In this document: one piece after another, positions 26,508 through 61,584 of the stretch
Layout of the letters: each line of letters begins with the position of its first letter
Numbering within the stretch: the stretch's first letter is position 1
Origin: Antedon mediterranea
Lineage: Eukaryota > Animalia > Echinodermata
Assembly (NCBI RefSeq): GCF_964355755.1
Contig: NC_092674.1
Location: 1,364,001-1,428,000 of the forward strand
Length of the DNA stretch: 64,000 nucleotides
Direction: 5' to 3'
Translations under genes and position numbers: made by a program
The notes under the pieces: model-generated
Databases searched by the model: none
Told to the model about the DNA's origin: nothing
What the model saw: only the letters and a program-made list of their open reading frames with translations

Positions 26508-27850
26508 ATGGACAAATCAACGACCCATATGACGGGGTTTACCACGAACACAGTGTGTAGTGGCATTTCGTACCTTCTCGTGACGCACACAAGCAATCCA
26601 AACAGTCAGAAATTCATTCTGAGCATGTTCAGAAATATATCCACTCACACAAATACGCTGACAGCCGGCGGTAAATTGTGCGCGGTATTGTAATGCTGGT
26701 TAATTTTGGGCTGCTATTTGTCAATTTACATATAGGCTCTTCCAAAACTGGACTTTTATAACGTTAATGGTTATTAGATATGATTAAATGGGATCTAAAT
26801 TTTAATTTAGTGACAGAAAAAAACATTTAGCATAAGATTAAGGGTGTTGCCCGGGCAATCGGGGCAACCCCCTGCGTTCGCCCCCTGCCATGATATGCAA
26901 TTGAATCTGAGTTCTATTCATATCATATTTATAGCCAGATGTCAGTGTTAGCTGGGCACTCATGAGTTCAGTAGCAAAAGGAGGCCATCGGCATGAAAAT
27001 GGGATCGGGGGATAGAGGGAGCGAGAAAAGGCCAACCTAAAGACCTCCCTAAACAATGTACATATGCCTAATGAAATAACTATCATATGTCTAATACTTA
27101 CTACTCTTCTTTATAGTATTTGTTACAGTAAATAAAATATCTGGAACCAGAGATATATCCAGTCTCGACGGGACTGGCAGGTAAACAAAATGAAACTACT
27201 AAAAGTTAAGTAGTATAATAGGATTAATAGTTATTATTTCTCTCAATGACGTTGACCTTTGTGAATTATCTACAGGAATCCTTCTCTATATAGATAGGCC
27301 TATTATATGCCATAGTGTGATACGTGCAGACCCCTATACTATACTAGGATGGATGTGCATTTTGACAAATATTAATTTAAGTTTCTAAACGTTACAAACG
27401 TAAAGATATAACGTGTCCCCTTAAATTTATTTATTTTTTGTTAAATATGCCATTTTGAGAAATGGTATTTAGAGAAGAGTCCGGAAGAACTTTCCAACCG
27501 TAATACTACGTTTATTAATTCGGTTTTAATAATTTAGCTCATTTCTCAGCAAATAATTCGATCGACGTAAGTGTAGCGTTGTTTGGTTTAGCTCTCCAAT
27601 CTCTAAGACCTTGGGGTGTGTTTCACCATCGTCGCTAGTGCTAAAATAACGATCTTGTCGTTTATAGGCCTATATCTTATCTTCGCTGCCAATCATCTCT
27701 CTTACTTTTTTCCATTCGCTACAACGCGTTGATTGGTTAAAAACGTTGTAAGTATTCAGCCAATAGGAAATCGTTAAATAATGCCATAGATATAATTATT
27801 TTCTTGATTTCAGTAAATCGAGTTTATACACAGGAAGGTAGCAGAACAGA

Positions 27851-30800
27851 ATGCGCAACATAGTGTTTAGTCTTTTTCTCACTTTCAAGGCAAGTACTAT
27901 TATTGTTCAAAGCTCAAATAGACAAGATCATTATTTTAGCGATTGTAAATGGTAACATTCTAAAACATCTATAGATTTTATGAAATGATTCTATTTTGAA
28001 AACCCATTGTTGTTGGCACCAATTCCTATAACGTACCGATGTAAACCTTCAATAAAGTAAGCCCTATTATTTCATTTAATTGTTTTGCTTTCTTGCAGGT
28101 TGTTGTCATTGTTGAATCTTCTTCCTATGGAAATTGTCCGGCTGATCCGACTGAAATAGGGTGTTCTAATGGTATATTATTTTATTATAATGATTAAAGG
28201 GTCTTTCATATCTGTTGAGGCAGGGTTTCGGTCCGGCGCCGGAAAATCTAATAGCACGTCAATGTTTCGTTTTCACGACGCTCCACGCGGCTATGCGTCA
28301 ATTGATATGCGCGTAGCCGCGTAAAAACAACACATTGGCGTCCGAATAGATTTTCCGGCGCCGGACCGAATCCGTGCTCAAGCAGGACGTGAAAGGCGCT
28401 TTACAGAAGGGTCCAATTAATGAATATAAACATTATATTTATGGTGCAAAATTATTTTTAAAAGAAACCAAAACCAAAACCTAAACTAATAATCAGTGTT
28501 ACTTTTAGAAACATTTTTAATTATCAATTTTGTTTATTTATCAGAAAACTGGATTCTGACTGATCGGTACATTGTACCTGGAACCGTTGACGTTTTTACC
28601 CACAAAAACTACCCTGATAAATACCGGAACTGCGAATTTCAAGGATGGAATATAACCACTGCGCCAGGCTATGTAATGACCGTTGTTTTCGAGATAGTTA
28701 ACTACGAATTGGGTAGCGATTTCTTGTATTTTGTTTACGAAGATTCTGGTGGTACCAATATAATTATAAAGGATGTATCCAGTCAAAATGATGAATTACT
28801 GCTTGATCTACAGTATAAGTATTTTGAGTCCTGGCAACTGTACATGTGTACCGATTTATCTATTAGGAAATATGGATTTCTCATCTATGTAACGCCTCAG
28901 CTTTGTAAGTTACCAGTATCTGTTACATTATTGCAACAAAATTAAACAGATAGATATGAATCATACCACACGTCCAATTAAAACGTGTCTAAAGCTCTGT
29001 CTACACTATCAAACTTTATGTGACAAAAAATGTGATGTTTGGGCACATTTTTTTGTCAAACTAGTTTAATAGTGTAGACAACGGAGTTTAAGAAAATGGT
29101 ATATATCTTACACAACAAGACAGTACCGTTTTGAAAAATCGTTAGCAGTACTATTTCGGGTCTTTTCTGCAGCTCAATATGCCTATTATAGTTCCGCATC
29201 TCCATACTATATTTTCGCAGCTCTATATTATAGTTCTACAGCTCTATGTTATAGTTCTACAGCTCTATATTATAGTTCTACAGCTCTATATTATAGTTCT
29301 ACACCGCTATATTATAGTTCTACAGCTCTATATTATAGTTCTACAGCTCTATATTATAGTTCTACACCTCTATATTATAGTTCTACAGCTCTATATTATA
29401 GTTCTACAGCTCTATATATTAATACAAGTATTGAAAAATATAGGCAATAAGCAGAATGTATTTTATTTCCACCAAACCCGTTTTTAGCACTCAGAATCGT
29501 ATTATGACTAAATACTATTTAATCATTGTAGCTTCAACAAGCGATATTAACCTAACCACAGAAGAAGAAGAAAGTACCACCACTAGTACAGGTTGGTGAA
29601 TTTTCATGGTGAATAACTATAATGATTTATGGTGACATTTTGAGGAAATAGATATTGAAATGAATTTGTCCTGTTACTGAAAATTCAATAATTTTGTTTT
29701 AGAAAATAATATACCTACATCAATTACTGGCTTTTTTGGAACATTCGACACCGGAACTTTACATCCAATCACCAACCCTAATACAATTGCAACATTTACT
29801 GAAACTTCGTCGACGGATACAACGTCATTATCGGTTTCAACGTCATCGTTTAATGCAACGTCATCGTCGGATTCAAGGTCATATGTAACGTCATCGTCTG
29901 ATTCCACGTCATCGTTGGATGCAACGTCATCGTCGGATTCAACGTCATCGTTTGATGCAACGTCAACGTCGGATTCAACGACATCGTTTGATGCCACGTG
30001 GTTCAGTTCCACGTCCGCTTCTGTTAGCATTTCTTATCAGGTATCGAATTAATATTTTACTCCTGATTAAATTGTGCATGTCTGGTTCAAGATGCAAGAG
30101 ATGATTAGCCTCTACGTTGATTTTTATTTTATTTCATTTCAACAATATTTTACGAGGGTGATCCATCATTAGGGATCCTCACAAAAATACAATATGACAA
30201 GACATAAACGATTTATTTAATCAGTCAATTTGTATTTTGTTTCTAATATTCTTCTCATTACCATGGACCTATAATTAGATATGGGCCTAGGTCCATGGTA
30301 TATTTCTTTATGTAAGAAAATATCTTAATCTTAATTAAGTGTAGTAAATGGTTTCCACAGATCGAGCATCTTTTGAATTACGCGGAATCACGTGACTCTT
30401 TGAGTGAATCGGAGGTTTTGCGTATCCTACAGTCCACTAAGGATATTACGTCAGACGATAGCAACTATTTGGACGTAAATGACATATTGAATGTAATCAG
30501 ACTGTTAGAAGTTATTGCAGATTCAGCGACATCATCAGAATCCTGTGTTGAGGTATAAAACGTCATGGTTCCCACAAGAAACTCAAGGACGTACGCGCAA
30601 CGCAAGCGAGTTGACCAATGAAAAGCCACTGTTTGAATAATCCATCGCTTGTGATTGTTCAAACCACTTTCGTTGCATTACGTCCTTGTGTTGCGTCGCT
30701 AGTGGGAATCAAGCTTAAGAGGGAACTTTTTTTATGATTGATTGTAAAATTGATTTTATGTTTACACGTTATGTAATGATGATGTGCCATGAGGCCACAG

Positions 30801-33800
30801 AGGGGTGACAGTAACGGATTTATTTGAGTCTTTATGTCGACCAAATGATACCTTGTTGTTTCTTGTTGATTTTCATGAACAATTATTTTACTGACAGTTG
30901 TACCTGTCGGTGTATGATGACATATTACGAGAATGTAACATGGATACACTCGCTTTATCAAATGAAAGTGAGGTAAGTATTCATATTCAGATAATATTCA
31001 GATAATATTTATTTAGATAATAATGAATGAATATATACAAAATAGAAAAAGATATTAAAGTGAACATAGATAAAGCAGTAATTGGTAGTCATTATTATCA
31101 TGGATCCCTTCTAGAAGTTAAAAACTTGTCTCGTAGGGACCCATAACAAAACACATTACTAAAAAAATAAAAATAACCTAGAATATATAATTATATAATT
31201 TAGGATAAAAAATTACAGTATAATAACATAACTAACATATACATGTATCTAGTGAATCTTTAAGCCGCAGCAGCAGTAGTAACGGATTGCGCATGATGCC
31301 GTCATTTGTTTTGTCTGTTTGTAAGTTCTCCATACTGGCCCGTTGAATATGCAAGGTTTAGAGCACGAACTATCAGCATCATCCCTTAAAGTTGTGTCTA
31401 AACTATCAAACTAGTTTGAAAAAACGTGTGTTATGACCAAATATGGTTTGATAATGTAGACAGAGCTTTACTGTGCAATGAATAAACTTTAGATCCTAAT
31501 TTGTCTATTTTCCATTATTTTATAGGGTGTTGCTAGTGACATCATGTCAATGATATTTACATACACGGCCGCCGTTTCTACTAACTTGGTCCAGGCAAAC
31601 GAATCGTCGGTCCTCAGTTTTGCGAATGAGAACATTGGTGAGGAAAAAAACATTGGTATTAAACAGAACGATATAATTATCGACAAAACATCATTTATTC
31701 ATATCTAATTTCGCAGTTGTAGAGACGGAATCTGTTGGAAGTAGTGACGTCACACTGTCAGTTGATAGAATGGAGATCTATGCCAGTGAGGATTCTTTTC
31801 ACGTTAGCTTACCCATGGTCAACTTGAAGAGCAAGTCAGGTAATTGGTTTACAGGACGTACCCGCAACGCCAGTAATTTGACCAATCACAAGTGATGGTT
31901 TGAATCATCTGTCGCTTATGATTGGTTGACATACTTGCATTGTGCACACCGTTCTTGCGTTGCGTCAAAACGACGGCAACGAAAAAAACGAGAATATTGA
32001 TAAGTGATAAAATAAGAGCAATTCAAAACTGAAAATGTGGATACAATGATGACAAAATTGGCTATGATGATGTTGTTGGAATACGGTAATAATAATCTAA
32101 AAAAGATGATGGAGATAAAGGTGAGAATATACGGTTTAATAGGCCTACTAACAATACTATTTCTCTAAATGTTTCAGTGAAAGTGATCACAATCTTGTAT
32201 AAGACATTGCATGTGATTTTACCAACCGTACTTGAGGGAGACCAAAGTGGACACGCCACAAGGATAGGATCATTTACAGTATCAATAACTGTAACGGCAA
32301 ATGACGTAGTGTTCAATCATTTTGATGGCAATGATCCACTTTACATAACTATTGATCACGTGGTTGTAAGTACCAATTAAAAGTATGTAAAGCTTGATTC
32401 CCACTAGGTCGCAACGCCAGACGGTATGAGCCTATCTGTACCATACGGATTGCATCCTTTCCTTTACTTTCATTGCCTCGTTCTTTAGATGGGACGTAAA
32501 GCCGTTGGTCCCATGTACAAAATGCACGTCAAAGAACTTGGTACAATATTCTTAAAGAGTAGGGGATCGTGTCCCGATGTGCTGATATGTGGTAGGCGCT
32601 GCACTGCTGGATGATGTTGGGCCTAAATCAAGTTTCCTCAGTTTCCATCCAATCTTAAAGACCAAGAATAATACATATCGACGCCAAATGCCGTAAGATC
32701 ATAACCTTTCGTAGGAACCGTCGACGTAACCACGAACGTGCCGTAGATGTATTTTTTTAGCATAGGATCCATGCTTTTTGCACAGAGAACCAATTAAATA
32801 CTAAAGGCATAGATAACATTGTTTGTAATATTTTAAAAGTGTGTTTATATTTCAGCAATTAAGAGAAAATGAAAAGTCTGTGTGTTCATTTTGGAAGTTT
32901 ACTGACAATAAGTAAGTAGACTCTATCGGTTGGTAGTTGGCTACTTTTGCTAGTTTACTAAATGTTGGACCTAAATCTATTACTCAACACTAGAAACTGC
33001 GCGCATACGCATGCGTATTGATAAAGCATGCCTAATCGTCACACATAATAAATAGGTCCTTTAAATACATTAAATGATTTTCTATTTAGTTAATTTACTA
33101 TTAATTTACATAATTTATACTGTCCTTTTTTTCTTTTTTTTATTTTCTGTATTTCATAAAACAGCATACATTACTTAACTTGGTTACATTACAAAGTAAT
33201 ACAAAATAAAAAAAATTATACTGTCCTAAATGACTGGAGTGAATGTGTACGCGAACATTAATTTTACAAACATTAATGTGAAATTAAAACTACAGTAAGC
33301 ATAACAATTATTTGTTGTCTTGTTGTAATTTGTGTAGTTTTGATGGGGGTGTATGGTCAGAGGACGGGTGCTTGGTTTCTTCATCAAATTCAAACCAATC
33401 CGTCTTTAGCTGTGATCATTTGACAAATTTTGCAATACTTATGAGAGTTCCAGGCCCGTCTCAGGTTAGAGTAGTGCGTTGACCTTTGTAAAGGCTCTGT
33501 ATAAATGACAATGTTAATGTTAAAATATAATAATATAATATGCTAAAACATCATTATACTATATTTAACATGTAAACTTCGTTTGGGTAACCAAATAATT
33601 TAGTTAAATTCAATAAGATTTGCTGTTCGTTTAAAAAATTTGCTTTTCTTTCGCCAGCATTTCATAATCTTTAAATTAGTTGACAATAAGGCATGTATTT
33701 ATACGGAAATTAATTTGGTTATTTATATCATTCACTAATGGTGAGCTGATTTTGTTGTGGTCTTTAACAAAACAAGAAAACAAACAATGATAAAGAAGCA

Positions 33801-36800
33801 TAAATGAATTATTATAATAATATAAATATATAGATGAGCGTACAATAAAACGTTATAAAAGTAATTCCTCTTCCACTTTATCCTCTAGGTTATTTCCGAA
33901 GGAGATACGTTTGCATTAGATGTTCTAACATACTTCTTAACGGTTCTCTCTATCATCTGTCTTGTTCTGACTGTTTGCACGTACATTTGGCTTCGGTAAG
34001 TTTTTATATTTCATTTTACCCTTACACTTGATTTGCTTTTCGTGGTGGTCTATACCTAAGCCTTGTCTACACTATCACACTTTATGTGACAAAAAAATTT
34101 GATGTGCTCATATATGGACACGATGATGTCAGATCACTACCATAATTAAGGATATCACTACAAATTGGGTACATTACACTTTTTTGTCAAACTAGTTTAA
34201 TAGTGTAGACAGAGCTTTAAGCCTGTTTTCCATCAGGCGAATTTGTTCGCGCGCGCGAATCCAACGTTTCTTCGCAGAGAAAAACAAATTGCGCTACTCT
34301 ATCCACTACAAGAGCAAATAGCTGCTAATTTAGCTGAAGAAGCGAAAAACTCAAGGAACTAGAATTCGTCGCAGAGGCATTTTGAAGATGAAAACAGCTT
34401 TCTCACCGCACCCGCCCCATTATTGCCTTAAAATATAGAAACTAAATGGTTTATTTTCTTCCTTTTACGTTTTACTTTTTTTATTTTAAAGAGCTTGGCA
34501 CCTAAGAAGAAACATCATCCATATAAACTTAGCCATATCACTTGCACTGGCTCAATTACTGTACATTGGCTTTGTCAATGCCACTGCAAATAAGGTAACA
34601 GTATGATACTCATAATAACATCGTTCCAATGTCATGAAGAAATTATCAAAAGTACTGTATTGTTAACTCTAAGCGTGTTGCATTATCAGATTATAATCCG
34701 AATAGACTATACATGTATTTTATAACCGTAGATAAATCACTTTGTATAATGCCTTACAATTAATATCGTACAATACACTGATATTTTCACGTTATTTAAT
34801 CAATATCTGTCCTTGTAGGATATTACTTAAAAGCTTCAACACTTTAAAAATCACATTTTTCATTATATGACCTTCATTGTAATAGACCTATTGTTAAAAT
34901 AAAATGCAGTGTGTTCGAAAAGCACAGTTAAAACTTTCTGTGCTTTTTAGAGTTTTAATTAATTGATTGTGTCGTGACGTAATTAGCTACACGATCACAC
35001 GTAAACGGAAGTACAGTACTTACAATATTAAATGGGAAAGTGTGTGATCTTCAGCTAAAATTTCTTGAATAAAAATAAAAACATCAAAAAATACCCAAAA
35101 TATAACGTCTAGTCCTTCTGAGTTACAAAAATAATTCAATGTTGGACTTATTTGTAGCATGGGTGCACGTTGGTAGCCGTTCTTTTACAATACATGTTTA
35201 CCGTCAGTTTTAACTGGATGTTATTAGAGGGCGTTCATCTTTTGATGATGTCCAACATCAACCTTCATCAAAGGAACCCGAAAAGTTATGTTTACGTCAT
35301 ATCCGGTTGGGGTAAGTTTCATCAACTTTCTCTGGGGATGTTTAGATGTACCAGATGGGTTAATTAAATCTACTTCACTTTTGTTCTAACATGTTTCTAA
35401 TTGTAGTGCCACCTCTTGGAATTGTGTTGATCTCATTTTCATCTAAACCATCTGGTTATGGAACTCAACAATTGTAAGTCTTACAGTATTTGTTAACAGT
35501 TAAGCCTTGTCTACACTATCAAACTTTATGTGACAAAAAATGTGATGTTCCTATTGACATGATGATGTCATATCACTGTTTGGGCACAATTTGTCAAACT
35601 AGTTTGATAGACAGAACTACGTCATGAAATGTTAAATCATAATTGTCTTGTTTTTCTCCGTAGTTGTTGGCTTGACACTTCAACGCCCATTATTTGGGCA
35701 TTTGTTGTACCGATCCTCATGGTGATTGCTGTAAGTACAATTTATTGAATGACGTGGTAGTTAGTGCGTAGTAACATTAACACCAAATGACGTGGTAGTT
35801 GACGCTTAGTAACAGAAATGACGTTGTAGTTGGTGCTTAGTAACACCAAATGATGTGGTAGTTGGCGCGTAATAACACAATTAACGTGGTAGTTGGCGCG
35901 TAGTAACAAAAATGACGTGGTAGTTGGCGCATAGTAACACCAAATGATGTGGTAGTTGGCGCGTAGTAACACAAATGACGTGGTAATTGGCGCGTAGTAA
36001 CACCAAATGACGTGGTAGTTGGCGCGTAGTAACACAAATGACGTGGTAGTTGGCGCGTAGTAACACAAATGACGTGGTAGTTGGCGCGTAGTAACACAAA
36101 TAACGTGGTAGTTGGCGCGTAGTAACACAAATGACGTTTTTTTTGGCGCGTAGTAGGCCTAACACAAATGACGTGGTAGTTGGCGCCTTGTAACACAAAG
36201 GACGTGGTAGTTAGAGCGTAGTAACACAAATGACGTGGTGTAGTAACACAAATGACGTAATAAAGACGTAGTGAAAATACCCATGCAATAATTGTCCTTG
36301 CAGGGGAACACGATTATTCTGCTCGCAGTTATCAGACGATTTATAAATTTAAAAGTAAATGCAACTAAAAGGAAGAAAGAACGAATGAGGTAAGACATGG
36401 AAATTGTTATTTTAGTTGTTGTAGTAGGGGTAGGGCTATGACGTACAAACAAATATGTAGGTACACGTTTACTGCGGTTTCTATGTGGAGATGTTCATGA
36501 TGTAATGAATGTGAAAACTACAAGCTGGCTATTTTCCTTTTTATTCATATTTTTACAGAACCAGTATTCGTGCAGTGTTGTTGATGCTACCCTTGATGGG
36601 ACTGACCTGGATATTTGGCTTGGTGGCGTCTTTTGATGATACACATTTCTTTGCATACGTATTCGTCATCTTTAACTCGTCACAAGTAAGCCTTACCCTG
36701 ACCACCAAATAAAATATTAACAACTGAGCCCGCAACTGAGTATGACGTTTTTACTTGCAGTTTGACTTTTTTGCGTTTTTAGCACTTAAACACAATAAAA

Positions 36801-37365
36801 AAATTTAATCACAATTTTGTCTTTATAGGGAGTATTCATTTTTTGCCAACTTATTCTGCTGAATGATGAGGTTTGTAGTTTTTATACGATTAATAATAAT
36901 AAATATTATTTACGACGGCAATAATTGAGAAAATTAAACTTAATAAATGTATGTATTATTTTATCATTTTGTTTTCACAATTTCAGATCCGGAGAATGTT
37001 TAATCAGAGATACACGAGGCGAAACGTAACAAGCACGTCACAATTGAGTAAAAGTGAACGAAAACACGTTAATCATGTGCGGCTACACAATTATTTCAAA
37101 CCATTACGACTATTGCTGAGTATAAAGCTCTGTCTACACTATCAAACTTTATGTGACAAAAATATTTGTGCCCATATATGGACATGATGATGTCATCACT
37201 ACCATATTTAAGCGTATCACTACGATATTTGGGCACGTCACACTTTTTTTTGTCACATAAATTAGTTTGATAGTGTAGACAGAGCTAGCATTATATACTG
37301 ACTTGCCATCAAATAACATTTACTAATTTCTTCTTTCAGATTTGTTTGAAGAAACAGTTAAATGA
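27851..37365 (+). CDS. Adhesion GPCR: signal peptide, CUB domain, Ser/Thr stalk, GAIN/GPS, 7TM
   Basis: Exons ~27851-27889, 28099-28171, 28545-28904 (CUB), 29532-29591, 29703-30040 (mucin-like), 30361-30552, 31526-31637, 31717-31839, 32179-32365, 32856-32911 (CSFW), 33338-33464 (WSEDGC..CDHLTNFAILM), 33889-33995, 34492-34594, 35158-35311 (FNWMLLEG), 35407-35473, 35664-35730 (CWL), 36304-36389, 36559-36685 (LPLMGLTWIFG), 36829-36870, 36987 onward; terminal exon 37340-37365 is uncertain. Confidence 0.9.
28196..28460. mobile_element. Palindromic MITE-like element; partial second copy at ~12226-12335
   Basis: ttcggtccggcgccggaaaatcta ... tagattttccggcgccggaccgaa; right arm and flank match 12226-12335. 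Confidence 0.75.
28992..29090. mobile_element. MITE family A (TIR aagctctgtctacactatcaaac), PIF/Harbinger-like
   Basis: First of ~16 copies: also ~31388, 34058, 35501, 37124, 40368, 40640, 41680, 42435, 43513, 43939, 45925, 52850, 54416, 58145, 63882. Harbinger assignment inferred from TWA-like flanks and TIR. Confidence 0.85.
29178..29417. repeat. 21-bp minisatellite (cagctctatattatagttcta), ~10 copies
   Basis: Directly visible; explains ORF 29179-29487. Confidence 0.95.
32480..32590 (+). mobile_element. SINE remnant with Deu/Nin-type conserved core
   Basis: gatgggacgtaaagccgttggtccc...gcacgtcaaagaac...aagagtagggga...cccgatgtg resembles the DeuSINE core as recalled from memory. Confidence 0.6.
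34058..34220. mobile_element. MITE family A, full-length copy
   Basis: aagccttgtctacactatca ... tagtgtagacagagcttt. Confidence 0.88.
35748..36260. repeat. 32/34-bp minisatellite (aatgacgtggtagttggcgcgtagtaacac), ~15 copies
   Basis: Fills most of aGPCR intron 35731-36303; explains the overlapping repetitive ORFs. Confidence 0.95.
37124..37287. mobile_element. MITE family A, full-length copy
   Basis: Both TIRs visible. Confidence 0.88.
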
Positions 37366-37389
37366 AGGTAGGCTTGCGCATTTTTTCCT

Positions 37390-44200: not shown

Positions 44201-47063
44201 TTACAACATACTTACATCTTCAATACATGCTCCTGAAAAACCTATTCTTTTTGCTACATCTATTGCTACTTCTTTTGATAATCCTAGGAATAATACAAGT
44301 GTGCAAAGTGTTAAATTCTACCCTACATTTCCATTGGACTCTAATTTCAAATTATTTACTAATCAGCAGAATGCAGAGAGGGATGAAAACATAGCTTAAT
44401 ATCTGATTGAATGTCAGAATGAATATTAGTAAATACTGTAGATGCAACAGCCTACCTTCATTGATATCAATTCCTTGTTTAACAATAGAATCTGGACTTT
44501 CTTGAGCTATTTCTTCAATATTAACTCCTCCTTCTGAACTTGCAATAATTACGGGACCCTACAATAGCAAATAGATATACTGTAATGTTAACTTTTATTA
44601 CAGCTAGAAGATGAAATGTAGATTTACACCAACTATATTATAAAATAGAAGATCTTGAAAAACATTTAAAAGTAGATGAGAATAATGTTCTGAAAGATTA
44701 TGAATGTAGTCTATAAACAATCAAACATAGGAACTCAACATTTACAACTCAAACCTACCATATATGATCTATTTAATGTTAGGTGTGAATGCATACTTAC
44801 CATATATGATCTATCTAATGTTAGGTGTGAATGCATACTTACCATATATGATCTATCTAATGTTAGGTGTGAATGCATACTTACCATATATGATCTATTT
44901 AATGTTAGGTGTGAATGCATACTTACCATATATGATCTATTTAATGTTAGGTGTGAATGCATACTTACCATATATGATCTATTTAATGTTAGGTGTGAAT
45001 GCATACTTACCATATATGATCTATCTAATGTTAGGTGTGAATGCATACTTACCATATATGATCTATTTAATGTTAGGTGTGAATGCATACTTACCATATA
45101 TGACCTATCTAATGTTAGGTGTGAATGCATACTTACCATATATGACCTATTTAATGTTAGGTGTGAATGCATACTTACCATATATGATCTATCTAATGTT
45201 AGGTGTGAATGCATACTTACCATATATGATCTATCTAATGTTAGGTGTGAATGCATACTTACCATATATGATCTATCTAATGTTAGGTGTGAATGCATAC
45301 TTACCATATATGATCTATCTAATGTTATTGCAAAGTAATATTCACGTCTTGAATACATTCGTTCACACACTAAAACCTGAAATAACAAATAAACTATTAT
45401 ATATTAGCTATCACTGTAGATGAATTATTTACAGAAATTATACAGAGATTTACTACTTACTACTACTTTTAATAACTTACAGAATTGCATGGCCTGCCAA
45501 TAGCTCCGGTTTGCTTCGTTATTAACTTGTTTCCAATCATCTGAGATGCTAATTCACGTACTTCTGTTGGGCTACACAAAGATTATTTAATAATAACATC
45601 TTCAAAATATTTTTTAGAGTTGGAAAATATAAATCACTATTGGATTTAATTTTGTAATTCCAGAAATACCAATTAACTCATTGTTGTAGTATTGATTAAA
45701 AAAATGTTGTATAGGTATTATGAACAAAAATACATACGAGAAAGCTAATTTAACACCTCCTTTAAGACCACTCTCAAAGTAACCTTTGCCCCTTCCACCA
45801 GCCAGTACTTGTGCTTTGACCACTACATCATTCCCTCCTGTACAAAATAAAAAAATACACATAAAGTTGCAGATCTTAAATACTGTAGATATATTTATTT
45901 ATTTTCATAACTACGCCGCTTCTAGAGCTCTGTCTACTACACTATCAAACTTTATGTGATAAAAAATGTCATGTCATATCACTACCATGTAAACATACCA
46001 CTATCATGTAAACATATCACTATCATACTTGGGCACATCATTTTTTTTTGTAACACTAGTTTGATAGTGTAAACAGAGCTTTACAATATAATTTTGACAC
46101 CAAACATCGTAAACCTTCTTACCAAGATCTGTTGCTGCTTGAAATGCCTCATCTGGTGTCATAGCAACCTTTGACCCAGGGATTGAGACACCTGCTTCTT
46201 GCAGTAGGTTGAAACTTAGGTACTCATGAAGCGATAAATGTCTACGCTGCTGTTGTCCACACAGAAACCCATTACCAATGGCTGCAGCGACCTAGGAAAG
46301 ACAAAGTAAAATGTACAAACGATATAAATTCAATGTCAACTGAATGATTACTCAACAAGAATATGTTTGGTCTATCATCCCTGGTCTATTGCTAATTTTT
46401 TTTTCTAATATTAACATTAATTTTAAAGAAATTTATTTAATTAATAATAATATTAATAAATCCAAAGGCAAATTACTGACAAAATTCAGTGGCTGGATCT
46501 CAATGGAGATACAAAAAAAAGCTAGGCCTAAATCAAAACGATAAAGTAAACAGCCAGAAAAGTTAGCAGAGCTTTCGGGCAACACTGGCCTACTAGTACT
46601 ATAGACTAGGCCTAGCCCTTTATCAGAAATTAATAAAAATAAATAATAAATTAATGTGATAAAAATATAAAATAGATAGTAGGCCTATATTGTTTGTCAT
46701 CACTATTTCAATAAATAGAACTTGAGCCTACCTAATACTGGCTGGTTGTTGCGTGTCCAAATGTGCACTTTCTTAACTTATGTCATAATGACAGGCTAGG
46801 CCTAGGCCTCCCTACGCACTTTCTACTTCTCGCGACCGGAGCGAATCCCGTTGTCAGCCAGCTACGATTTGCGGTCATATTAATTTAGGTTAGTATGCCT
46901 AGGCCTAGACACTATTTTCACTAAATTTTGTAAAAATAAAATGCAAGAATATTTCCAAAATAATCCTATAATCAGTAAATCATAATCTTACCTTTGTATG
47001 ATGCTGTAATCCCTGTTTTGCAGCAATCAATCTGCTCCCGAGTCGACATATTGAAGAAGCCAT
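41215..47063 (-). CDS. SUCLA2: Succinate-CoA ligase [ADP-forming] beta subunit, mitochondrial, 13 coding exons
   Basis: Exons ~47063-46992 (transit peptide), 46291-46123 (LSLHEY), 45837-45738 ([12 protein letters not shown]), 45571-45481, 45376-45305 ([13 protein letters not shown]), 44558-44456 (GGVNIEE), 44282-44215, 43881-43785 (EINPL), 43426-43265 ([10 protein letters not shown]), 42906-42764 ([19 protein letters not shown]), 42406-42286 ([10 protein letters not shown]), 41937-41849, 41289-41215 ([17 protein letters not shown]). The C-terminal extension resembles SUCLA2 rather than SUCLG2. Confidence 0.95.
43513..43650. mobile_element. MITE family A copy
   Basis: Both TIRs visible, opposite orientation to the 37124 copy. 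Confidence 0.85.
44756..45327 (-). repeat. 42-bp minisatellite spanning the SUCLA2 exon 5/intron junction, 14 donor copies
   Basis: Unit = 23 nt exon tail taacattagatagatcatatatg + 19 nt intron head gtaagtatgcattcacacc. Confidence 0.97.
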
Positions 47064-48292: not shown

Positions 48293-51200
48293 ATGGGAAA
48301 ATTAAAGCCACTTCTACGTCTAAAAATCGATGAACTATTTCTACGGTGGTTGAGTGAAGCGGACACGCAAGAAACCTTGCGTGAAAACCTATCACTCATC
48401 AAAAAGGGAGAAAACATAGACTACATTCCGTCGTCAGCATTTCAGTATAAGAGCCATGGTAGCCCTGCATCACCCTTACTCAGGGTCTCATCACCAACAA
48501 CTCCTCCTTGTTCACCAATTCCAAACAGTACTCCAAGTCCTCGGAGACGAAGCACTAACAAACTGTCAACATCATTATCCAAGTCACTCACTGCTAAGGT
48601 AAGTAACAAACCACACATTGTATTAATTCTAGTATAGTAATAACCTAACATGATGGTATGAAATTAATACTTATTTTATTAATGCTGCAACAAATCTATG
48701 TATTGAAAATGAAAGATGATTGTTGTGCTGTTTACATCCAATCTTGTGTTCATAGAAAATTATTAAAACAGTATTTTGTTTAAATATTAGACTGACTAAT
48801 TTGAAGGAAATAATTGTAACCCCTAACATAATAATAGAACATTCCAAAATATTTGACCAATCATTAGACAGTATTTAGTGACTTAATTCAATATAACTAA
48901 TGTAATTTACTAATAGCTCATTTTCTTGAATCGTATTAAATACATAGGAATTTATATAATTATTACTTTGTTCAACCCTAGATAGTTTATTTGGCACTAG
49001 ATGTTGCATACTCTGGTATACAGTACAATAGTGCCACACATTTGTGAAATTCAAGCTTATTAATTAAAGTTAGTAAGCATTTAATGATTGTTGAGTTATT
49101 TGCATTCGTTGATATAAATAAGATATTAAGTTTTCGTGCTAAGTGCTAAGATTAAACTTGCTTCGTCTTTTCAGGCTTGACCCTAAAGAGTTTGATATTG
49201 CTCTTTAATTGGCATGATAGGAATTTTACTAGCTTGCAGGCATGTTCTAATCTAGCTCAAATTCCTCAGGCGGCGGTCTTACTTTAAAACAGTTTATATT
49301 TATCACCTGCCACAATATTAAACACATAAACGACCAAGTAAATCATTTATTGTAAAAGATGTTCTGTTTATGCTTGTATAAATAAAAGATATTTGACATT
49401 TTTAGGATTTCAAGAGAAATGATATTTGATAATGTAATCCATGCTCCATTCCCTACAAATTAAATTCAAGCTAAATTATGACACAAAATCACCAATATTA
49501 AATTATTATTATGCTATCTGAGTATAATCCCACCACTAATTTTTTTTCTCTAAATTTCATACTCAGGTCCCCCTGTGGTCTCCCTACTTGACCATACGGA
49601 CATTTTTTTTTCTTTTTGTAAGATTATTTTGGTAAACTAAATATCGAAAAATGGTTTTTCCTTTTTTCTTGGAAAAACCAGTCACTGCAACATTTTGTTT
49701 GTTCTCTCATAGATACTGTACTTAAATAAACGTTATGTTGCTAGTTAAAGATGTATTGTTTCCTGTTTCCACGGAGACAACTTTCAATTACAGTATTTGT
49801 CACATGACCCAAAAAGTTGATTGAGGTCAAAGTGATTAACATTCTTACTCACTAACATTACCACATACTGTACTGATCCTACACTCAAATAGCCTCCAAT
49901 AGTATTAATAATAATAATAATCACTGAACATTATGCACCATTTTTATTACAATTTTTTTTTTTAATATAACACATTAGAGACACTGTTTAATTTTCTATT
50001 TATTCAATACTATACTTTGATTAAAATATTGTTAGCAGAATTTCTGGGGATAATTTTATGACACAATAAAGATAATAACAATAATTTGATATCGTGCAAT
50101 ATTAGATAATTGACTGTCTGTCACTGTTATTATTTGATAAATTAGGCTACCACATGCGGAGACAACTGTTAGTTAAAATCTATTAATGACCCGATTTTAA
50201 ATAGACTATGAAATGAAAGATGATGATGTTACAAATGGTAACCAGATCTAATCACCGACTTCTGTCATAGGCCTCTCATCATGCTTGCTTCCTTATAAGG
50301 GCATGCCATCTAGGCCTATACTGTAGCTTTAGCAAGCAGAGTGGATCAGTCCAAATGGTAAATTTTAAGGCCATTGAGATCTTATGAATCAAGTGAAACA
50401 GCTGGTACATGAGGCCTACAAAGAGGCATACTGTTAGTATCAGAAGGGAGGACATACTTCAATCATTGATATTTTGTTTTTTTATTGTTGTTGAATCAAA
50501 AGTGAATTTGTATTATATTGATGGTGACTACATGGGTACTGCATCAATTAACGTTAACTGTTAGCAACAATGTTTATAATTTTCCAGAGAAGCAAAGACG
50601 ATTTTGTTGATTTTTTTCTGCAATAGAAAGCTTTTCAATTGATTTGATGTCATCAGCGATGATTGATGTTTTTATTTGTGGTTTTGTACAATGTTGGACT
50701 CCAATCCAGGATGTAATTTGTCATGTATGTAAGGTGATGAAATGATTGACACATGGTGTGACTGTTTAGATTCTAAGGAATCACCAATCAATGATTGCAT
50801 ACGCTGTTTATTAGTTGTATGAACTCTTACAATACAAACACTAAATGTAGCTGTTACTCAAAGAACTTGAAATATTTTTTGCAGGCATTTTGTGTCAAAG
50901 ACTAAAGCCCACTTTGTGTTTCATGTTTCAATTTTGTCCTACACATCGTTATTGCATAAACTAATTGTATCAACGTCATTATGCATTTTAATACCCTACA
51001 AACATGTCAACTGTATTGCTGTTATTCTTATAGAATTTTAAAGTTTTTTAATTTGTTTTGTCATTAACATTGTTTTTCTTGATTGTTAATTGTGGTTTTT
51101 GCTGCAACCGGACTATTAGTTATTGAACAATAAATAGTCGTTTTCAACGTGTAATTGTGGTGTTTTGTAAATGCCAGCCATTCTTAATATGCAGACATGT

Positions 51201-54200
51201 CCTCAGCCAGCACCATATCACCTTGTATTTTCATCTCGCAACATTAATGAGAGTTTTTTCATCGATCAACGACCGGTTCGTATTGTTCACCATTTTCATA
51301 AGACTTGTCCGTTTCAGAAGCAAGACTCGTCTGGCAAGCCGTGTGACGCCGTTCATTTCGGATTCTGTTCTGATGTTTTTACTTCCAAAGATTTAATTCT
51401 GGATGTTAATCAAAATTGTATCATTAGTAAATCTAATAACAATATCAAGGTAGGCATTCATCAAATTTATGATCATGACACAGATGTAGCTCGAGAAATT
51501 TAGGGGTGGGTGGCACAATTCAAAACATAAAAAGATAACCTTTCAGCAAGAATTTGAATAGGTCCCCAGCCACACAGTAGTTACATCATTGCATGAGTTT
51601 AAATTAGCTTAGTTTTTTCTAACTTATTTAAATGCAATTGATTTTGTAACTGTAGACATCCATTTCTGAAATAAAAGTAAAATGAATGAATGAATTAACT
51701 AATTATTAAAGCCCAGTGTACTTTTTGCTTAGCAAAATTTATATAAGATAAGATAAGATAAATCTTTATTGTCATGAACACAACCAGGCGAACATGAAAT
51801 TGGTTTTCCTTGATGCTTAAAAACACATACAATATATAAAACATTAAAAATATCAATACAATACATTAAAACTATATACAGTAGTAAACAAACTATCTTT
51901 GAAATGTTGAGTTGGAAACATGAATAGAGTTGTGGACAAAGAACAGCCTATAGAAAAACAAGAAAAATAGTTCAATAATAACGTCATAAATAACAGTTAA
52001 CACAAAGAAAATTTTGTATTATTTATAGTAACATGGTCCGAAATATCAACATGTAAATGGCAATATATTTACTTAAGTTATATACAAGTGCTTTTATTAT
52101 AAAAGTTTTTCAAAGCCAACTACTTCATTAATAATATCATCACATGTAGTGATGTGATGAGTAATGTAATTGTCATGTATGTAGTAAGCCTTTACAAAAG
52201 ACAAGTTGTAACTCATTAAATATTTATCAAAGAATTTCTCGTGTGAATAGGAATGTTGCTCTCAACATCACAAAGTATGATAGTTAAGTTGTGATACTAC
52301 ATTTTAGAAATTTTTTGTTTTTCTTATTTATTTTTAAACATTTTGATTATTATATTAATAAAAAAAATTATCTTTTGTGTATGGTATTTGTAGTAAATAC
52401 TATTATTCGGGAAAATCCTGCAATTGTAAGTAATTCTTAATAATAAACAGAATGGTTATAATAATAATGTCCTTGTATGGAGGATAAAAACATGGTACTG
52501 TAATATTAGTGACCAGGCACATGGACTAATGTTTTCTAAGTTGAAACTTAAAAAAGATGGTATAATTAGTTCCATGTAATGACTTATTAAGTGATTACAA
52601 CAAGGTAAGCCACCAGTAGTGACTTATGTGTACATGTGGGATATGAAGGTCAACAAACTTTACAAGGGTTTTATTCCCAGTGTGATCTTATCTGGTGCAA
52701 TAAGTACCATCCTACCAAACTTAAGAAAGTTAGTGGACAATTAAATGTTCTATCCAAATTCATTAATCTGTAATTGTATTTTTTGCTAGTAGTAAAACCT
52801 TAAATTGATAGTAGGAACCAACCGACCAAATTTGAATATGGATATATCTATAAAAAATGTGATGTGCCCAAATATGGTAGTGATATACCCAAATATGGTA
52901 GTGATATGACATCATGTTCATATATGGGCACATCACATTTTTTTGTTATAATAAAGTTTGATAGTATAGACAGAGCTTAAGATTTAAGTTTCTAGACACC
53001 CTTTAGGAACAATGGGAAGAGATTTGGTTGATACTGTATGTACAAATAAGGAGTGAAATTGCCTGTGCTCCGTCTACAGATCCATACAGCTTAAATCATT
53101 TCCTGACAGACACTGTGTGTAACTCTGAGACACACATGGCACCTATTCACTAAATCTCAATGTTGTGATTTTAAACATTTTAAAAAACCTCAAATATATT
53201 TTTTTTCTGGGGTTTGAATGGGCCAAGAATTAATTTGTTTACCTATCTCTCATACTGTATGTGTACTGAGTAAATTGTATTGTATTGAAACAGTAATGTT
53301 TATTACATGAAAAAAAAGGGTAGCAATCAGATTAAATGCATTTCTAATTAATAATTCTAAAATATAATTGAAAACTTCTTATACAACATATCCTGCAAAT
53401 AAACTATAATTAGTCCGTGCGAGTTTAAAGTTTAAAGCCAAAAATTCTGTAATATTTATAATTATTAGATATGAATATTCTCATTCATCCAGTTAGTACT
53501 AAGTCCAGTGGATTACATTAATATCAAAACAAAAATAAATGTTATGTCATCTATTTTTTTTTTAGCTTTTTGAAGATCGTAAAGCAGCTGAGAGTAACCG
53601 GCAACCAGTAAACGTTCCACAGTTTTACTTTCCGTACGGCCGACCGGTTGACGCGGGGGTAAATGAAAAGGTGTTGGAAAAAGTGTCAGAGGTTTTTAGA
53701 TCATTACAAGTTATTAGAAAACATGAAATGGATGAGTTAACATTGGTATGTTGGTAGGCCTACATTTTCACTTTTATTATAGTTATGCAATTATGGAATT
53801 GTGGCTTGGTGGTTATGATGTTTGGCTACCAATCCAATGGTCCTGGGGTCAAGTCCTGTCATGTGTCAGGATTTTTTTCTTTCTAATGACAAGAAACTCC
53901 ACACCCAAAGACTTGTAATAAGACTTTGTTTATGTAGAGCATCTTGTGTATATGTTTGTATATGACCCAAGATTACCACCGTTAAGAAGGATAGTGAATA
54001 AATTTGCTTATGGTTATCCTTGCCTAAATATATTTTTTTAAAGTCAAATTCTAAAGTTTGAGACAGATTTTTTGAATGCTACGACAAAACTGATTTATTT
54101 GTAAGGATACATGCATTCAGTTTGCTTTATTGATTTAAAATATTTTTTGTTTTATCGTGTGAATAAAAAATACAAATACAGAAATCATCAGAAGTCATTG

Positions 54201-56220
54201 ACCTCATATTTATTACTACAGTATCATTCATTACAGGCATGTGGCTGCCCTAAATACTGGAGGATGGCCCTCTATCACGCAGCTGGAGGAAAGGATGATG
54301 TACCCCTTACACAAGAAATGTTTGTAACAATGTGGCAGAGGTTTGTAATACATTCTTTAATGTACAGTATATTCATTTTTTCAACCAATTGCAGCACCTT
54401 TCGATTGCATAAAGTTAAGCTCTGTCTATATTATCAAACTAGTTTGACAAAATAGTGTGATGTGCCCAAATATAGTAGTGATATGACATCACCACATCCA
54501 TATATGGGCACATCACATTTTTTGTTACATAAAGTTTGATAGTATAGACAGAGCTTTAGAAACTATTTTATTATTTATTTATTAATTATCAATCAACATC
54601 ATCTTTCTGAATCATCTTTTATTGAGTCTGAACTTAACATTGAAATTTGTTTTTATATTTCTTTTTCCCATTTGTGCATTTAAAAGTTGACCTCTAATTG
54701 ACCTTATCAGTTTCTGAGCCATCTTTTATATTTATTGCATCTGAACTTAACATTATTTTTTGTAATTTCTCTTACAGAGTGATTTCTGAATGCCATGACG
54801 ATAGTTCAAGATTATTTCGTCTTTTAGTCAAACCCAAGTGCAATTACATATCAGCTGAAGACTGGTACCCAATGATTCAGGTAAATATTTAAGAATACCC
54901 CTTGATACCGGTCTCAATTACATATCAGCTGAGGACTGGTACCCAATGATTCAGGTAAATATTTAAGAATACCCCTTGATACCGGTCTCAATTACATATC
55001 AGCTGAGGACTGGTACCCAATGATTCAGGTAAATATTTAAGAATACCCCTTGATACCGGTCTCAATTACATATCAGCTGAGGACTGGTACCCAATGATTC
55101 AGGTAAAGAACACCCCTTGATACCGGTCTCAATTACATATCAGCTGATGACTGGTACCCAATGATTCAGGTAAAGAATACCCCTTGATACCGGTCTCAAT
55201 TACATATCAGCTGAGGACTGGTACCCAATGATTCAGGTAAATATTTAAGAATACCCCTTGATACCGGTCTCAATTACATATCAGCTGAGGACTGGTACCC
55301 AATGATTCAGGTAAATATTTAAGAAAACCCCTTGATACCGGTCTCAATTACATATCAGCTGAGGACTGGTACCCAATGATTCAGGTAAAGAACACCCCTT
55401 GATACTGGTCTCAATTCAATCACCCCATCGGTAAACAACTCCTTCCAGTTTGTTTGAACCGACCTTTGACCAAAGTTGTTTTAGTGGTCTGTAAAGGAGA
55501 CTTCATCATTTTTGTCACAGAAGTCTGAATGTGGTTTTAGTTTAAAAGTCATTTAACGTCACTTAAGTGACCAATGTAATGTCATTACCATTGTCATCAT
55601 CATTTATAATCATCATAATATTTATCATCTTTTATTCTGTTCGTTATCATCAATTACCATTCCATTTTTTGTGAATTTTAAAGAATCAAAAGTACATAAG
55701 TGTAGAGTAATAAGTTACTACCGTATATCCTCTGGTATAATCCCACGCCTCTAGAACATGAATTAAATTACTACCGTATATCCTCTGGTATAATCCCACG
55801 CCTCTAGAACATGAATTAAATTACTACCGTATATCCTCTGGTATAATCCCACGCCTCTAGAACATGAATTAAATTACTACCGTATATCCTCTGGTATAAT
55901 CCCACGCCTCTAGAACATGAAGTATACCAGGGAAAGCCTGGTTCAATAAAAAAATTATTGGTAAAGCATTTCTTGTAAAAACTCATATGAACTATCTAGA
56001 GAGTGGCCTACATCCAGACCAAAAGTGAATACTGGGACTATACCCACCCAGGGATATGCCTGTTTTTGAAATCAGACATAAAGTAGGGGGTGGGATTATA
56101 CCTGAGGATATACGGTATTAGCCAATCATTTGCTTTGTTTTGCAGGATGTGGTAAATTCTCATCCTGGATTGTCATTCCTGCAGGATGCTCCTGAATTCC
56201 ATTCTCGTTATATCCACACG
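48293..56220 (+). CDS. PPP2R3: PP2A regulatory subunit B'' (PR72/PR130/PR70 family), 5' part; continues past the window
   Basis: Exons 48293-48598 (LKIDELFLRWLSE), 53566-53745 (VPQFYFPYGRP), 54237-54340 (ACGCPKYWR), 54778-54880 (CHDDSSRLF..WYPMIQ), 56146-56220 (DVVNSHPGLSFLQDAPEFHSRYIHT); phases consistent. Confidence 0.92.
51171..51449 (+). CDS. Candidate alternative first coding exon of the PP2A B'' gene (93 codons)
   Basis: ATG, 93 open codons, phase-0 donor aag|gtaggc compatible with the acceptor at 53566. Confidence 0.45.
53800..53990 (+). mobile_element. tRNA-derived SINE remnant
   Basis: A-box-like gtggcttggtggtta and B-box-like gggtcaagtcc; no intact cloverleaf. Confidence 0.5.
54416..54558. 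mobile_element. MITE family A copy
   Basis: Both TIRs visible. Confidence 0.85.
54841..55416 (+). repeat. 74/67-bp minisatellite spanning a PP2A B'' exon/intron junction, 8 donor copies
   Basis: Unit = 40 nt exon tail caattacatatcagctgaRgactggtacccaatgattcag + intron head gtaaa(tatttaa)gaataccccttgataccggtct. Confidence 0.97.
55715..56117. mobile_element. MITE (TIR taccgtatatcctc..gtataatcccac) with its left end tandemly repeated 4 x 53 bp
   Basis: Right TIR gtgggattatacctgaggatatacggta at 56090-56117; left TIR units at 55715, 55768, 55821, 55874. Confidence 0.85.
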
Positions 56221-56979: not shown

Positions 56980-58038
56980 TTAAACTTTGACCTTTCCACC
57001 ATTGTTACCGCCCTCATGGACATCCGTATCCTCTGCTTGTTTGTCATCTTCAGGATGAATGGTCTCTGTTGGCAAATCTGTTGAAAGCTCAATGATCACT
57101 TCAACCACATCTTCTTCAGCTATCTCTTCCTCTGCTATCTCTTCCTCTGTTTCTTCCACTACCTCCTCGATGACCTCTTCAACGACTTCTTCAACAATTT
57201 CTTCAACCATTCCTTCCAGAGCTTCCTCCACTGCCGCTTCAACAGCTTCTTTTACTTGGTCAACGACCTCATCAACGATTCTTTCCTCGATCTCTTCTAC
57301 CATTGTCGTGGCATCAGTGCTTGAGATTTCAATTTCTTCAGTTTCTTCTGTAGTGGATACCTGATCAATCTCTTCCTCTTCTAATTGTGTAGCTGTTTCT
57401 GGTTTTGTTTCTTCACTGTCTGATGTACTTAACAGCAAAGATGTGCGAGGGCGAATCATTTTGTCTTGTGTGGCATCTTCCTGCTCTTCTTCAGATGATG
57501 ACTCTGAGCTAGATTCTGGTGATGCAATTGTAGCTGTCACATCTTCTGTGTCAACTTCTTCCGACGACTCTTCCGATGATGATGATTCTGAGCTAGATTC
57601 TGTTGCTGCAATTGTAGCTGCTGTAGCATCCTTTGTTTCAATCTCCTCTGACTCTTCTGAGCTAGACTCTGTTGATGTGATTGCTGCTGTACCTTCCTTT
57701 GTTTCAATCTCCTCTGACTCTTCTGAGCTAGATTCTGTTGATGTGATTGCTGCTGTACCTTCCTTTGTGTCAATCTCCTCTACCTCTTCCTCTGAGCTTG
57801 ATTCCATTGGTGCATTTGTTGAGTCTTCTACCTCTAGGACCACGGTGACCATTTCTTCCACTTCAGTCATTGTCACTACTTGTTCATTGTGTTCGATTTC
57901 AAGCTCGTCGCCTTGTCCTTCCACTATTGCTAGCGTTTCATATTCGTCTGCAGCTAATGTTTCACCAGTTGGTACAGGTAAGCCTCTTGCCACAAACAAC
58001 AGGCAATTGCTGACGACTATTAACCAAAATGTATTCAT
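56980..58038 (-). CDS. Nested antisense gene: secreted, highly acidic Glu/Ser/Thr-rich protein (352 aa)
   Basis: Acceptor ttttgtgcag at 58049, ATG at 58038, signal peptide MNTFWLIVVSNCLLFVARG, 22-aa internal repeats with SSSEE, single coding exon; AATAAA at ~56555 and ~56385. Confidence 0.8.
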   Translation of the reverse strand: MNTFWLIVVSNCLLFVARGLPVPTGETLAADEYETLAIVEGQGDELEIEHNEQVVTMTEVEEMVTVVLEVEDSTNAPMESSSEEEVEEIDTKEGTAAITSTESSSEESEEIETKEGTAAITSTESSSEESEEIETKDATAATIAATESSSESSSSEESSEEVDTEDVTATIASPESSSESSSEEEQEDATQDKMIRPRTSLLLSTSDSEETKPETATQLEEEEIDQVSTTEETEEIEISSTDATTMVEEIEERIVDEVVDQVKEAVEAAVEEALEGMVEEIVEEVVEEVIEEVVEETEEEIAEEEIAEEDVVEVIIELSTDLPTETIHPEDDKQAEDTDVHEGGNNGGKVKV

Positions 58039-58780
58039 GTTTAGAAATCTGCACAAAATTTAAAAAAATAAAAAGTTAATTTATGCTGCAATTCCTTTTG
58101 TAAGTAATATTTTAAAGAAATAATAATCTATGATTCATGAATCTAAAACCCTGCCTACACTATCATACTTTATGTGATAAAAAATGGACATAATGTTATA
58201 TTTGGGCATATTATAATACCATATTTTGGCACATCATACTTGTTTTGTCAAACTAGTTTTATAGTGTGGACAGAGATTTAAGTGTATTTTAATACTGCCC
58301 TCTATAGTTTGTCTTATGGAAACTTAACTTAATAAATATAATTCTGATTGGGAACTTGTTTGTGTTCAAAAGAAAATCTATTGAAACTTTTAATTTAAAC
58401 ATGGTCAGGTGATTAGGTCAAATATAAGTCAACAAAGGTCAGGAAATTGACCTGCCTGCCAAACCAATAAACTGAGTTGTTAATTACATGGCTGCACCTT
58501 TCATTTTATTGACCTAATTACAAGTTGACTTCTTTGGAAAAACAATTAAAAGGCAGGTGTTAATACAGTAGATGTAAATAATGTCAACAGGTGTTAATAG
58601 ATGTAAATTAAGCTGTCTGTCTGTCAGGATATTGAAATAATGAGTAGGAGGTTTGCTTTGAACAGAAAACAAAGTTCTGAATTATGAATTCTCTTAATTT
58701 GTAAAATTTGTTATTTCACAGCGAAATAACTTGCCAATTACAGGATATATAAACTATTTTATGATTTATCATGCTTTTAA

Positions 58781-60027: not shown

Positions 60028-60725
60028 TACACTGTGTACATACAGTGGCGTAACGGCTATGAGCACTTACTGGCTACACCCAGGGACACTGTGTACATAC
60101 AGTGGCGTAACTGCTATGAGCACTTACTGGCTACACCCATGTACACTGTGTACATACAGTGGCGTAACTGCTATGAGCACTTACTGGCTACACCCAGGTA
60201 CACTGTGTACATATACAGTGGCGTAACTGCTATGAGCACTTACTGGCTACACCCAGGTACACTGTGTACATACAGTGGCGTAACTGCTATGAGCACTTAC
60301 TGGCTACACCCAGGTACACTGTGTACATATACAGTGGCGTAACTGCTGTGAGCACTTACTGGCTACACCCAGGTACACTGTGTACATATACAGTGGCGTA
60401 ACTGCTATGAGCACTTACTGGCTACACCCAGGTACACTGTGTACATATACAGTGGCGTAACTGCTATGAGCACTTACTGGCTACACCCAGGTACACTGTG
60501 TACATATACAGTGGCGTAACTGCTATGAGCACTTACTGGCTACACCCAGGTACACTGTGTACATATACAGTGGCGTAACTGCTATGAGCACTTACTGGCT
60601 ACACCCAGGTACACTGTGTACATATACAGTGGCGTAACTGCTATGAGCACTTACTGGCTACACCCAGGTACACTGTGTACATACAGTGGCGTAACTGCTA
60701 TGAGCACTTACTGGCTACACCCAGG
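60028..60725. repeat. 57/59-bp minisatellite, 12 copies, covering flank plus a CAGTGGCGTA element terminus
   Basis: Unit tacactgtgtacat(at)acagtggcgtaactgctatgagcacttactggctacacccagg. Confidence 0.95.
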
Positions 60726-61584
60726 GGCCCTGGAGCTTATGGGAGCCCCTGAGCAGTGCCCAGAGAAAAAAAAAAGCATTAACTTATGACGAAAAAATTT
60801 CATTATGGGGAAATCATAATAAAATCATGTGTTAAAGCTTCAAATTATTAACTTGTGTCGATTGTGTGTTGATAAATAGGTAAATGTTAAATCAATTTAG
60901 GAGAACGTTTTTAGTCATCCTCCAAAAAAAATGGGTGTAGACCTGCCTGCAGGCTTCTGTATTAAGTTACCTTTAAACAGTGGCTACTGTATACCTACAC
61001 TTTACAGTATTTATTTACAGTAATTCAAATACTAGGATATCCCTTGAATGATATCAGATAAAAGTAAAACAAGGGTAACTCCAAATTAAGAGTTGGAAGA
61101 AAGTTTGACTAATTGAAGAAAAATTTGATAAATTTTCAAACTCATCAGATTCTTGAACAATGAAAATAAAACTTTAAATTCTCGATTGTGTTCTGTCTAA
61201 TAGTTGTACTTGTATACCCTTTTATTTTTTTTAATTGCTGCGAAAAGATTTTTTTAGATGCTACACTTTTCCTTGACAACTAAATAATTTAATACTAAAG
61301 AAACTAACACTGTAGTGGTAATGTTATATACATGTTGTAGCAGGGAATTGGTTGCAGTTCAACTATTACACAAAAAATATTGAAAAGAAAACAGCCTTAT
61401 TTTTTAGTCAAAAGTTTAGTAGTATATTTATCTAATTTTTTTTTCAAGCAAAGTCATTAAAAAAATATATTAATACAAACAAAAATAAATACAAAATACA
61501 GCATTTAAATAAATATCTTATTATTTACTACTACTATTACTAAGCATTCAAATATAAATATCTTATAATAATATAGTAATATAA

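Follow-up and report, generated by a model that had tools for sequence, protein, structure and literature searches.

Several described minisatellites repeat an exon-intron boundary together with its donor site. In the 37-bp VNTR of human F7 intron 7 (Borensztajn et al. 2006, PMC1557585), unit 1 spans the exon-intron boundary and the donor is repeated in the intron. According to the available portion of that report, the first donor alone is used at F7 IVS7, LMNB2 and PDGF, and two extra donors are used at 6-16 and CBS; the extra F7 sites work once the first donor is lost, without competing with it, and the title of a work cited there ties the CBS VNTR to lower activity (PMC1557585). Repeat length can also affect splicing by other routes (PMC6660495, PMC10078293, PMC2812944, each in its accessible part). 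At ABCA7, VNTR length in intron 18 tracks both expression and splicing (PMC6660495), and the mechanisms described in the available text for ABCA7 and for human splicing-associated tandem repeats are exon skipping, factor binding or branch-point distance, with no donor ladder (PMC6660495, PMC10078293).

Here we describe an array at a donor of the feather-star gene for PP2A regulatory subunit B'', located in a 64-kb window (the whole 64,000-nucleotide stretch of Antedon mediterranea DNA that we analyzed). Judged by its sequence structure, the array belongs with the exon-intron-boundary minisatellites known from human F7, CBS and LMNB2. As in F7, unit 1 crosses the boundary, the donor recurs in the intron and the first donor is used, and the eight copies compare with five to nine in F7 (PMC1557585, as far as its available text goes). 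The two differ in that each PP2A B'' unit carries 40 exon bases rather than four, and in that the PP2A B'' array has two unit length classes and an echinoderm host; moreover, the silence of the extra donors was tested experimentally in F7, whereas in PP2A B'' it is a prediction from annotation and contigs (PMC1557585, same portion). Closest in unit size are the 100-bp LMNB2 and 81-bp PDGF(A) intronic repeats, long units that repeat the exon-intron junction and use the authentic donor only, although these are mammalian and have more copies (10-18) than the eight found here (PMC1557585, in the part available). The CBS intron 13 VNTR and the interferon-inducible 6-16 minisatellite span a donor as PP2A B'' does and provide a model for leaky next donors; there the use of two extra donors is demonstrated, whereas those of PP2A B'' are candidates (PMC1557585, likewise). 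Taken as a single locus, PP2A B'' is one more example, from an echinoderm, of a described class, and alters the picture little. In the open-access literature listings that we searched, no paper dealt with an array at the PP2A B'' locus or with a donor bias across an invertebrate genome.

The identity of the host gene, proposed originally from the sequence, was borne out by three lines of evidence. The array exon matches PP2A B'' chains in the PDB (4mew, 4i5l and 4i5j), the gene carries the B''-type Pfam domains EF-hand_13 and P2R3B_EF-hand, and comparison with annotated feather-star proteins gave 100% identity. The products of neighboring genes were likewise identical at 100% to proteins of Antedon mediterranea. 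Residues 1-257 of the annotated protein P0001 are encoded exactly by five exons in the window, with the remainder lying beyond it. A second isoform, P0003, begins with an alternative first coding exon that is 72% conserved in P0002, a protein of a relative. The succinyl-CoA ligase beta gene lies head to head with PP2A B'', their start codons (47063 and 48293) being about 1.2 kb apart, and the two genes likely have a common promoter. The features of the PP2A B'' locus, and of two further donor-spanning arrays in the window, are listed in Table 1.

Table 1 Coordinates of the PP2A B'' exons, of the donor-spanning arrays and of their donors, numbered within the window
Feature	Position	Strand	Remark
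Upstream exon, PP2A B''	48293-48598	+	
Alternative first coding exon, PP2A B''	51168-51449	+	isoform P0003
Upstream exon, PP2A B''	53566-53745	+	
Upstream exon, PP2A B''	54237-54340	+	
Coding exon, PP2A regulatory subunit B'' (PR72/PR70)	54778-54880	+	P0001 residues ~197-231, start of EF-hand_13 domain; last 40 nt open unit 1
Minisatellite, 8 units of exon tail + donor + intron start	54841-55416	+	74/67 bp, LLLSSLLS
Donor 1	54881-54886	+	used by annotated proteins
In-frame TAA met reading past donor 1	54890-54892	+	
Seven extra donors	54955-55390	+	donor G at 54955, 55029, 55103, 55170, 55237, 55311, 55385
Next coding exon, PP2A B''	56146-56220	+	acceptor partner of donor 1
Succinyl-CoA ligase (ADP-forming) beta array	44756-45327	-	42 bp, 14 donors (45304 to 44758)
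D-aspartate oxidase-like gene array	15760-16108	-	52 bp, 7 donors (16072 to 15762)

The PP2A B'' array reached TRF scores of 972-1072. Counted from CAATT, its units measure 74, 74, 74, 67, 67, 74, 74 and 67 bp, giving the order LLLSSLLS of long (L) and short (S) units, and CAATT stands at both array ends, with the closing copy at 55412. Each unit consists of the last 40 exon bases followed by 34 (L) or 27 (S) intron bases, the 7-bp difference falling immediately 3' of the donor. Unit 1 (54841-54914) spans the used junction, and the donor motif CAG/GTAAA is intact in all seven intronic copies. Against a matrix built from 45 other window donors, donor 1 scored 8.7, at least as high as 58% of those donors; the four L-type extra donors (2, 3, 6 and 7), whose nine-nucleotide sequence is identical to that of donor 1, also scored 8.7, and the three S-type donors scored 6.0. 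Only the fourth and eighth donors lie in frame with the first, leaving five of the seven distal donors out of frame. The donor coordinates, unit sizes, unit order and caatt ends of the original prediction were thus all reproduced from the sequence.

The units are 95% alike, which might suggest that the array is an assembly artefact. We regard this as exceedingly improbable, as the units carry distinct variants in a nested pattern: one identical sequence is found in units 2, 3 and 6, a private base is common to units 4 and 8, and unit 5, of the S class, has a variant of its own. In addition, DNA-like run X1 showed a depth of 350-817 on the unit against about 40 on single-copy flanks, with the caveat that depth is no copy number and that X1 may come from the sample used for the assembly; the X1 contig through the exon ends at 54870, inside unit 1.

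The position of this contig end also bears on allelic variation. At unit position 19 the exon copy has A and, in the assembled haplotype, six of the seven intronic copies have G and one has T, from which descent of all intronic copies from one early duplicate had been proposed. We simulated contig end positions on a k=31 graph with five read sets. The contig ended at 54889 with the assembly alone and at 54858 with an exon variant, and the contig path ended at the donor with spliced plus unspliced RNA or with distal mRNAs; an end at 54870 appeared only when an allele had the exon-type base in a tandem copy. Other alleles therefore probably differ from the assembled array. The proposed difference between exon and intronic copies holds in the assembled haplotype, but its generality is weakened by the contig break, which suggests alleles in which an intronic copy has the exon-type base.

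We consider it likely that the array is a tolerated product of slippage and unequal exchange, with splicing from the first donor and removal of rare errors by NMD. Replication slippage at CAATT repeats would first have produced two copies, and the microhomology-bounded duplication proposed earlier was judged right. Unequal exchange may then have expanded the copies; units 2-4 and units 6-8 have the appearance of a single L-L-S block copied once. As in human F7, the upstream donor would win, by an oriented scanning tested in mammalian cells only, and rare distal splicing would be removed by NMD as noise rather than used as control. Continued choice of the first donor by splicing is the likely reason why the array is tolerated. 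We rejected a hairpin-driven origin and hairpin masking of donors: each L unit has a 9-bp stem around its donor, but single units folded no better than shuffles (z of -0.95 and 0.50 for RNA, -0.82 to 1.01 for DNA). A two-unit stretch gave a folding z of -2.5, a value that any repeat with a short palindrome could give.

Donor use was assessed from annotation and read contigs. Both annotated isoforms, P0001 and P0003, join the array exon directly to the exon at 56146, that is, from donor 1. Nine runs from three studies contained part of the region, and four were compared with the stretch ending at unit 1, all as contigs only; two of these four yielded spliced contigs, which show presence, not absence. 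In X9, from a close relative (organism B) that shows 18 differences across 390 exon bases, three exons are joined in a single spliced RNA contig of 2142 nt, which keeps the exon tail unbroken and exits at 54881; there is no cover on the intron start. In a further run, X6, depth was 1679 on the exon tail and 55-60 on the rest of the exon, a pattern that hints at the presence of the array in organism B. In the same-species, RNA-like run X5, a 380-nt contig joins two exons, and its last 95 bases were inferred from depth and length to lie on 54776-54870. The annotated isoforms and the X9 contig show that the most upstream donor is the main form used; minor forms may exist. Low distal-donor use would be possible because rare variants are lost from contigs and NMD targets are not visible in annotated proteins. 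X5 had an intron-start depth of 25 against 8.8 on exons, with four of the six unique intron bins empty, and its depth ratio to X1 at the intron start (0.07) was no higher than at a nearby intronic repeat (0.10-0.17), which leaves unspliced RNA or DNA indistinguishable from distal splicing as its source.

The same data bear on a leaky, non-adaptive quantitative allele of the CBS type, in which donors 2 and 3 would be measurably used, NMD would degrade their products, and PP2A B'' output would be slightly lower from alleles that are longer or more uniform. This possibility draws on the identity of donors 2, 3, 6 and 7 to donor 1, on a stop at least 62 nt before every distal junction, on the presence of array sequence in X5 and on the polymorphic appearance of the array, together with the two extra donors used at 6-16 and CBS and the cited title on the CBS VNTR (PMC1557585, available portion). 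However, annotation and the X9 contig show donor 1 only, and the extra F7 donors do not compete (PMC1557585, same portion), so we hold a leaky allele to be unlikely, if the most serious of the alternatives.

Reading through donor 1 adds V-N-I and then meets the TAA, which lies 62-492 nt upstream of the seven distal junctions. The claim that any distal donor leads to a premature stop was thereby confirmed. Stops located more than 50-55 nt before a junction trigger NMD, a rule that may not hold in crinoids; products of the distal donors would fit it and are predicted NMD targets. The stop had also been taken as a special feature, and this view found no support in a comparison with ordinary donors. 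At 22 other protein-anchored window donors, an in-frame stop occurs within 12 nt in six and within 74 nt in 15. When we simulated 30-80 bp duplications over these 22 donors, 64.5% introduced a stop, 18.1% a frameshift only, and 17.3% stayed open and in frame, so that 83% gave a premature stop or a frameshift. An S unit read in that frame likewise meets a stop, within six codons, and the TAA matters for only two of the seven distal donors, the other five being out of frame anyway. Because early stops are ordinary both at window donors and in simulated duplications, a poison stop needs no design.

These results leave little room for a rheostat set by copy number and maintained by selection, with the poison stop and donor ladder tuning PP2A B'' through NMD. 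The geometry permits such a device, with the 9-bp stem around the donor in each L unit, and the length dependence of expression and splicing at human ABCA7 (PMC6660495, in its accessible part) offers a parallel. Nevertheless, the stop is expected by chance, a single unit folds no better than shuffles, the sister arrays described below have no such stop, one of them being in frame throughout, and annotation and the spliced contig use donor 1. The rheostat advanced in the original prediction is unsupported, and we consider it very improbable.

Where a single donor-spanning array had been named, two further ones in the window had been missed, and all three lie within 40 kb. The succinyl-CoA ligase array is fully in frame and stop-free, with 14 amino acids per unit, so that every further donor would insert another 14 residues into the ATP-grasp domain. 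The D-aspartate oxidase array is frameshifting; one of its units is 2 bp short, and its last copy has a different, weak donor. In both sister arrays, a different intron start follows the last exon-tail copy, diverging at +4. Left-end microhomology was absent in both, and a search for a local template of their repeated intron starts found best matches within 0.5 and 5 kb that were no better than those of shuffles (fractions 0.17-0.99). The first and last donors scored 8.7 and 6.0 in PP2A B'', 11.0 and 9.4 in succinyl-CoA ligase, and 7.1 and 3.6 in D-aspartate oxidase. The first donor outscored the last in all three cases, as would be expected if arrays persisted only where the first donor wins.

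The coding outcomes of the three arrays are an early stop, an open frame and a frameshift. That three like-built arrays have three coding outcomes argues against a shared poison design and is as expected of random duplications. The three together are more informative than one locus: with one architecture and differing coding outcomes, a comparison of their distal-donor use would separate donors that are not used from donors that are used but degraded, without NMD inhibitors, because distal products of succinyl-CoA ligase would be in frame. Such products would escape NMD, yet P0005, the only feather-star succinyl-CoA ligase beta protein listed (a one-member cluster), is without an insert, which speaks against a leaky allele.

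The window is rich in minisatellites. From 59 TRF rows we retained 14 non-redundant arrays (period of 19 or more, 3.5 copies or more), leaving out overlapping rows, shorter arrays, microsatellites and one coding repeat, with cut-offs set after seeing the data. Three of the 14 arrays span a donor and 11 cover no annotated donor; within the 64-kb window, none of the 14 spans an annotated acceptor. Under uniform placement of the 13 arrays other than the ascertained one, with 48-80 donors, of which 23 of 48 were placed by eye, 0.26-0.44 donor-spanning arrays were expected. The post hoc probability of two or more was 0.027-0.068, or 0.04 when restricted to gene spans, a hint of an excess over uniform placement. 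A broader reading is that this genome makes and keeps donor-spanning minisatellites unusually often (three among about 48 donors, none at acceptors), favoring those in which the first donor is at least as strong as the last. If these arrays vary between animals and leak, copy number would be a common quantitative allele, acting through transcripts lost to NMD at PP2A B'' and D-aspartate oxidase, and through 14-residue in-frame inserts at succinyl-CoA ligase beta. We rate this whole proposal as quite unlikely, a step below a leaky allele at PP2A B'' itself. If frequent leaky arrays were real, a single invertebrate would offer many natural tests of how 5' splice sites are scanned, and a donor bias that held genome-wide would point to a mutational or selective rule for minisatellite survival in genes.

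Two of the arrays that cover no donor seem, by eye, to straddle the ends of MITE-like elements. A 53-bp array of four copies (55711-56118), in the same intron as the PP2A B'' array, is built from the left terminal repeat of a MITE-like element together with flanking sequence. Elsewhere, a 59-bp array of 12 copies (60028-60760) appears to repeat the end of another element, and both readings were made by eye. An element of about 130 bp with terminal inverted repeats, found at 54415-54560 and in many other places, is very abundant and lies in many introns; its summed contig depth is in the millions.

Antisense inside a PP2A B'' intron is a 358-codon open frame (56980-58056, minus strand), whose product is very acidic, has a signal-peptide-like start and contains 22-residue repeats; we would guess a secreted or skeletal-matrix protein. 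On the minus strand at 24679-24960, two apparent D-aspartate oxidase exons are skipped by the annotated 287-aa protein P0125 and match its 349-aa paralog P0126, and this gene copy may be mis-annotated or decaying. On the plus strand, 27850-37370 holds what appears by eye to be an adhesion-GPCR-like gene with a CUB-like exon, a Ser/Thr-rich repeat and a 7TM region; its first coding exon is followed by a GC donor, and one of its introns consists mostly of a 31-bp array (35778-36239).
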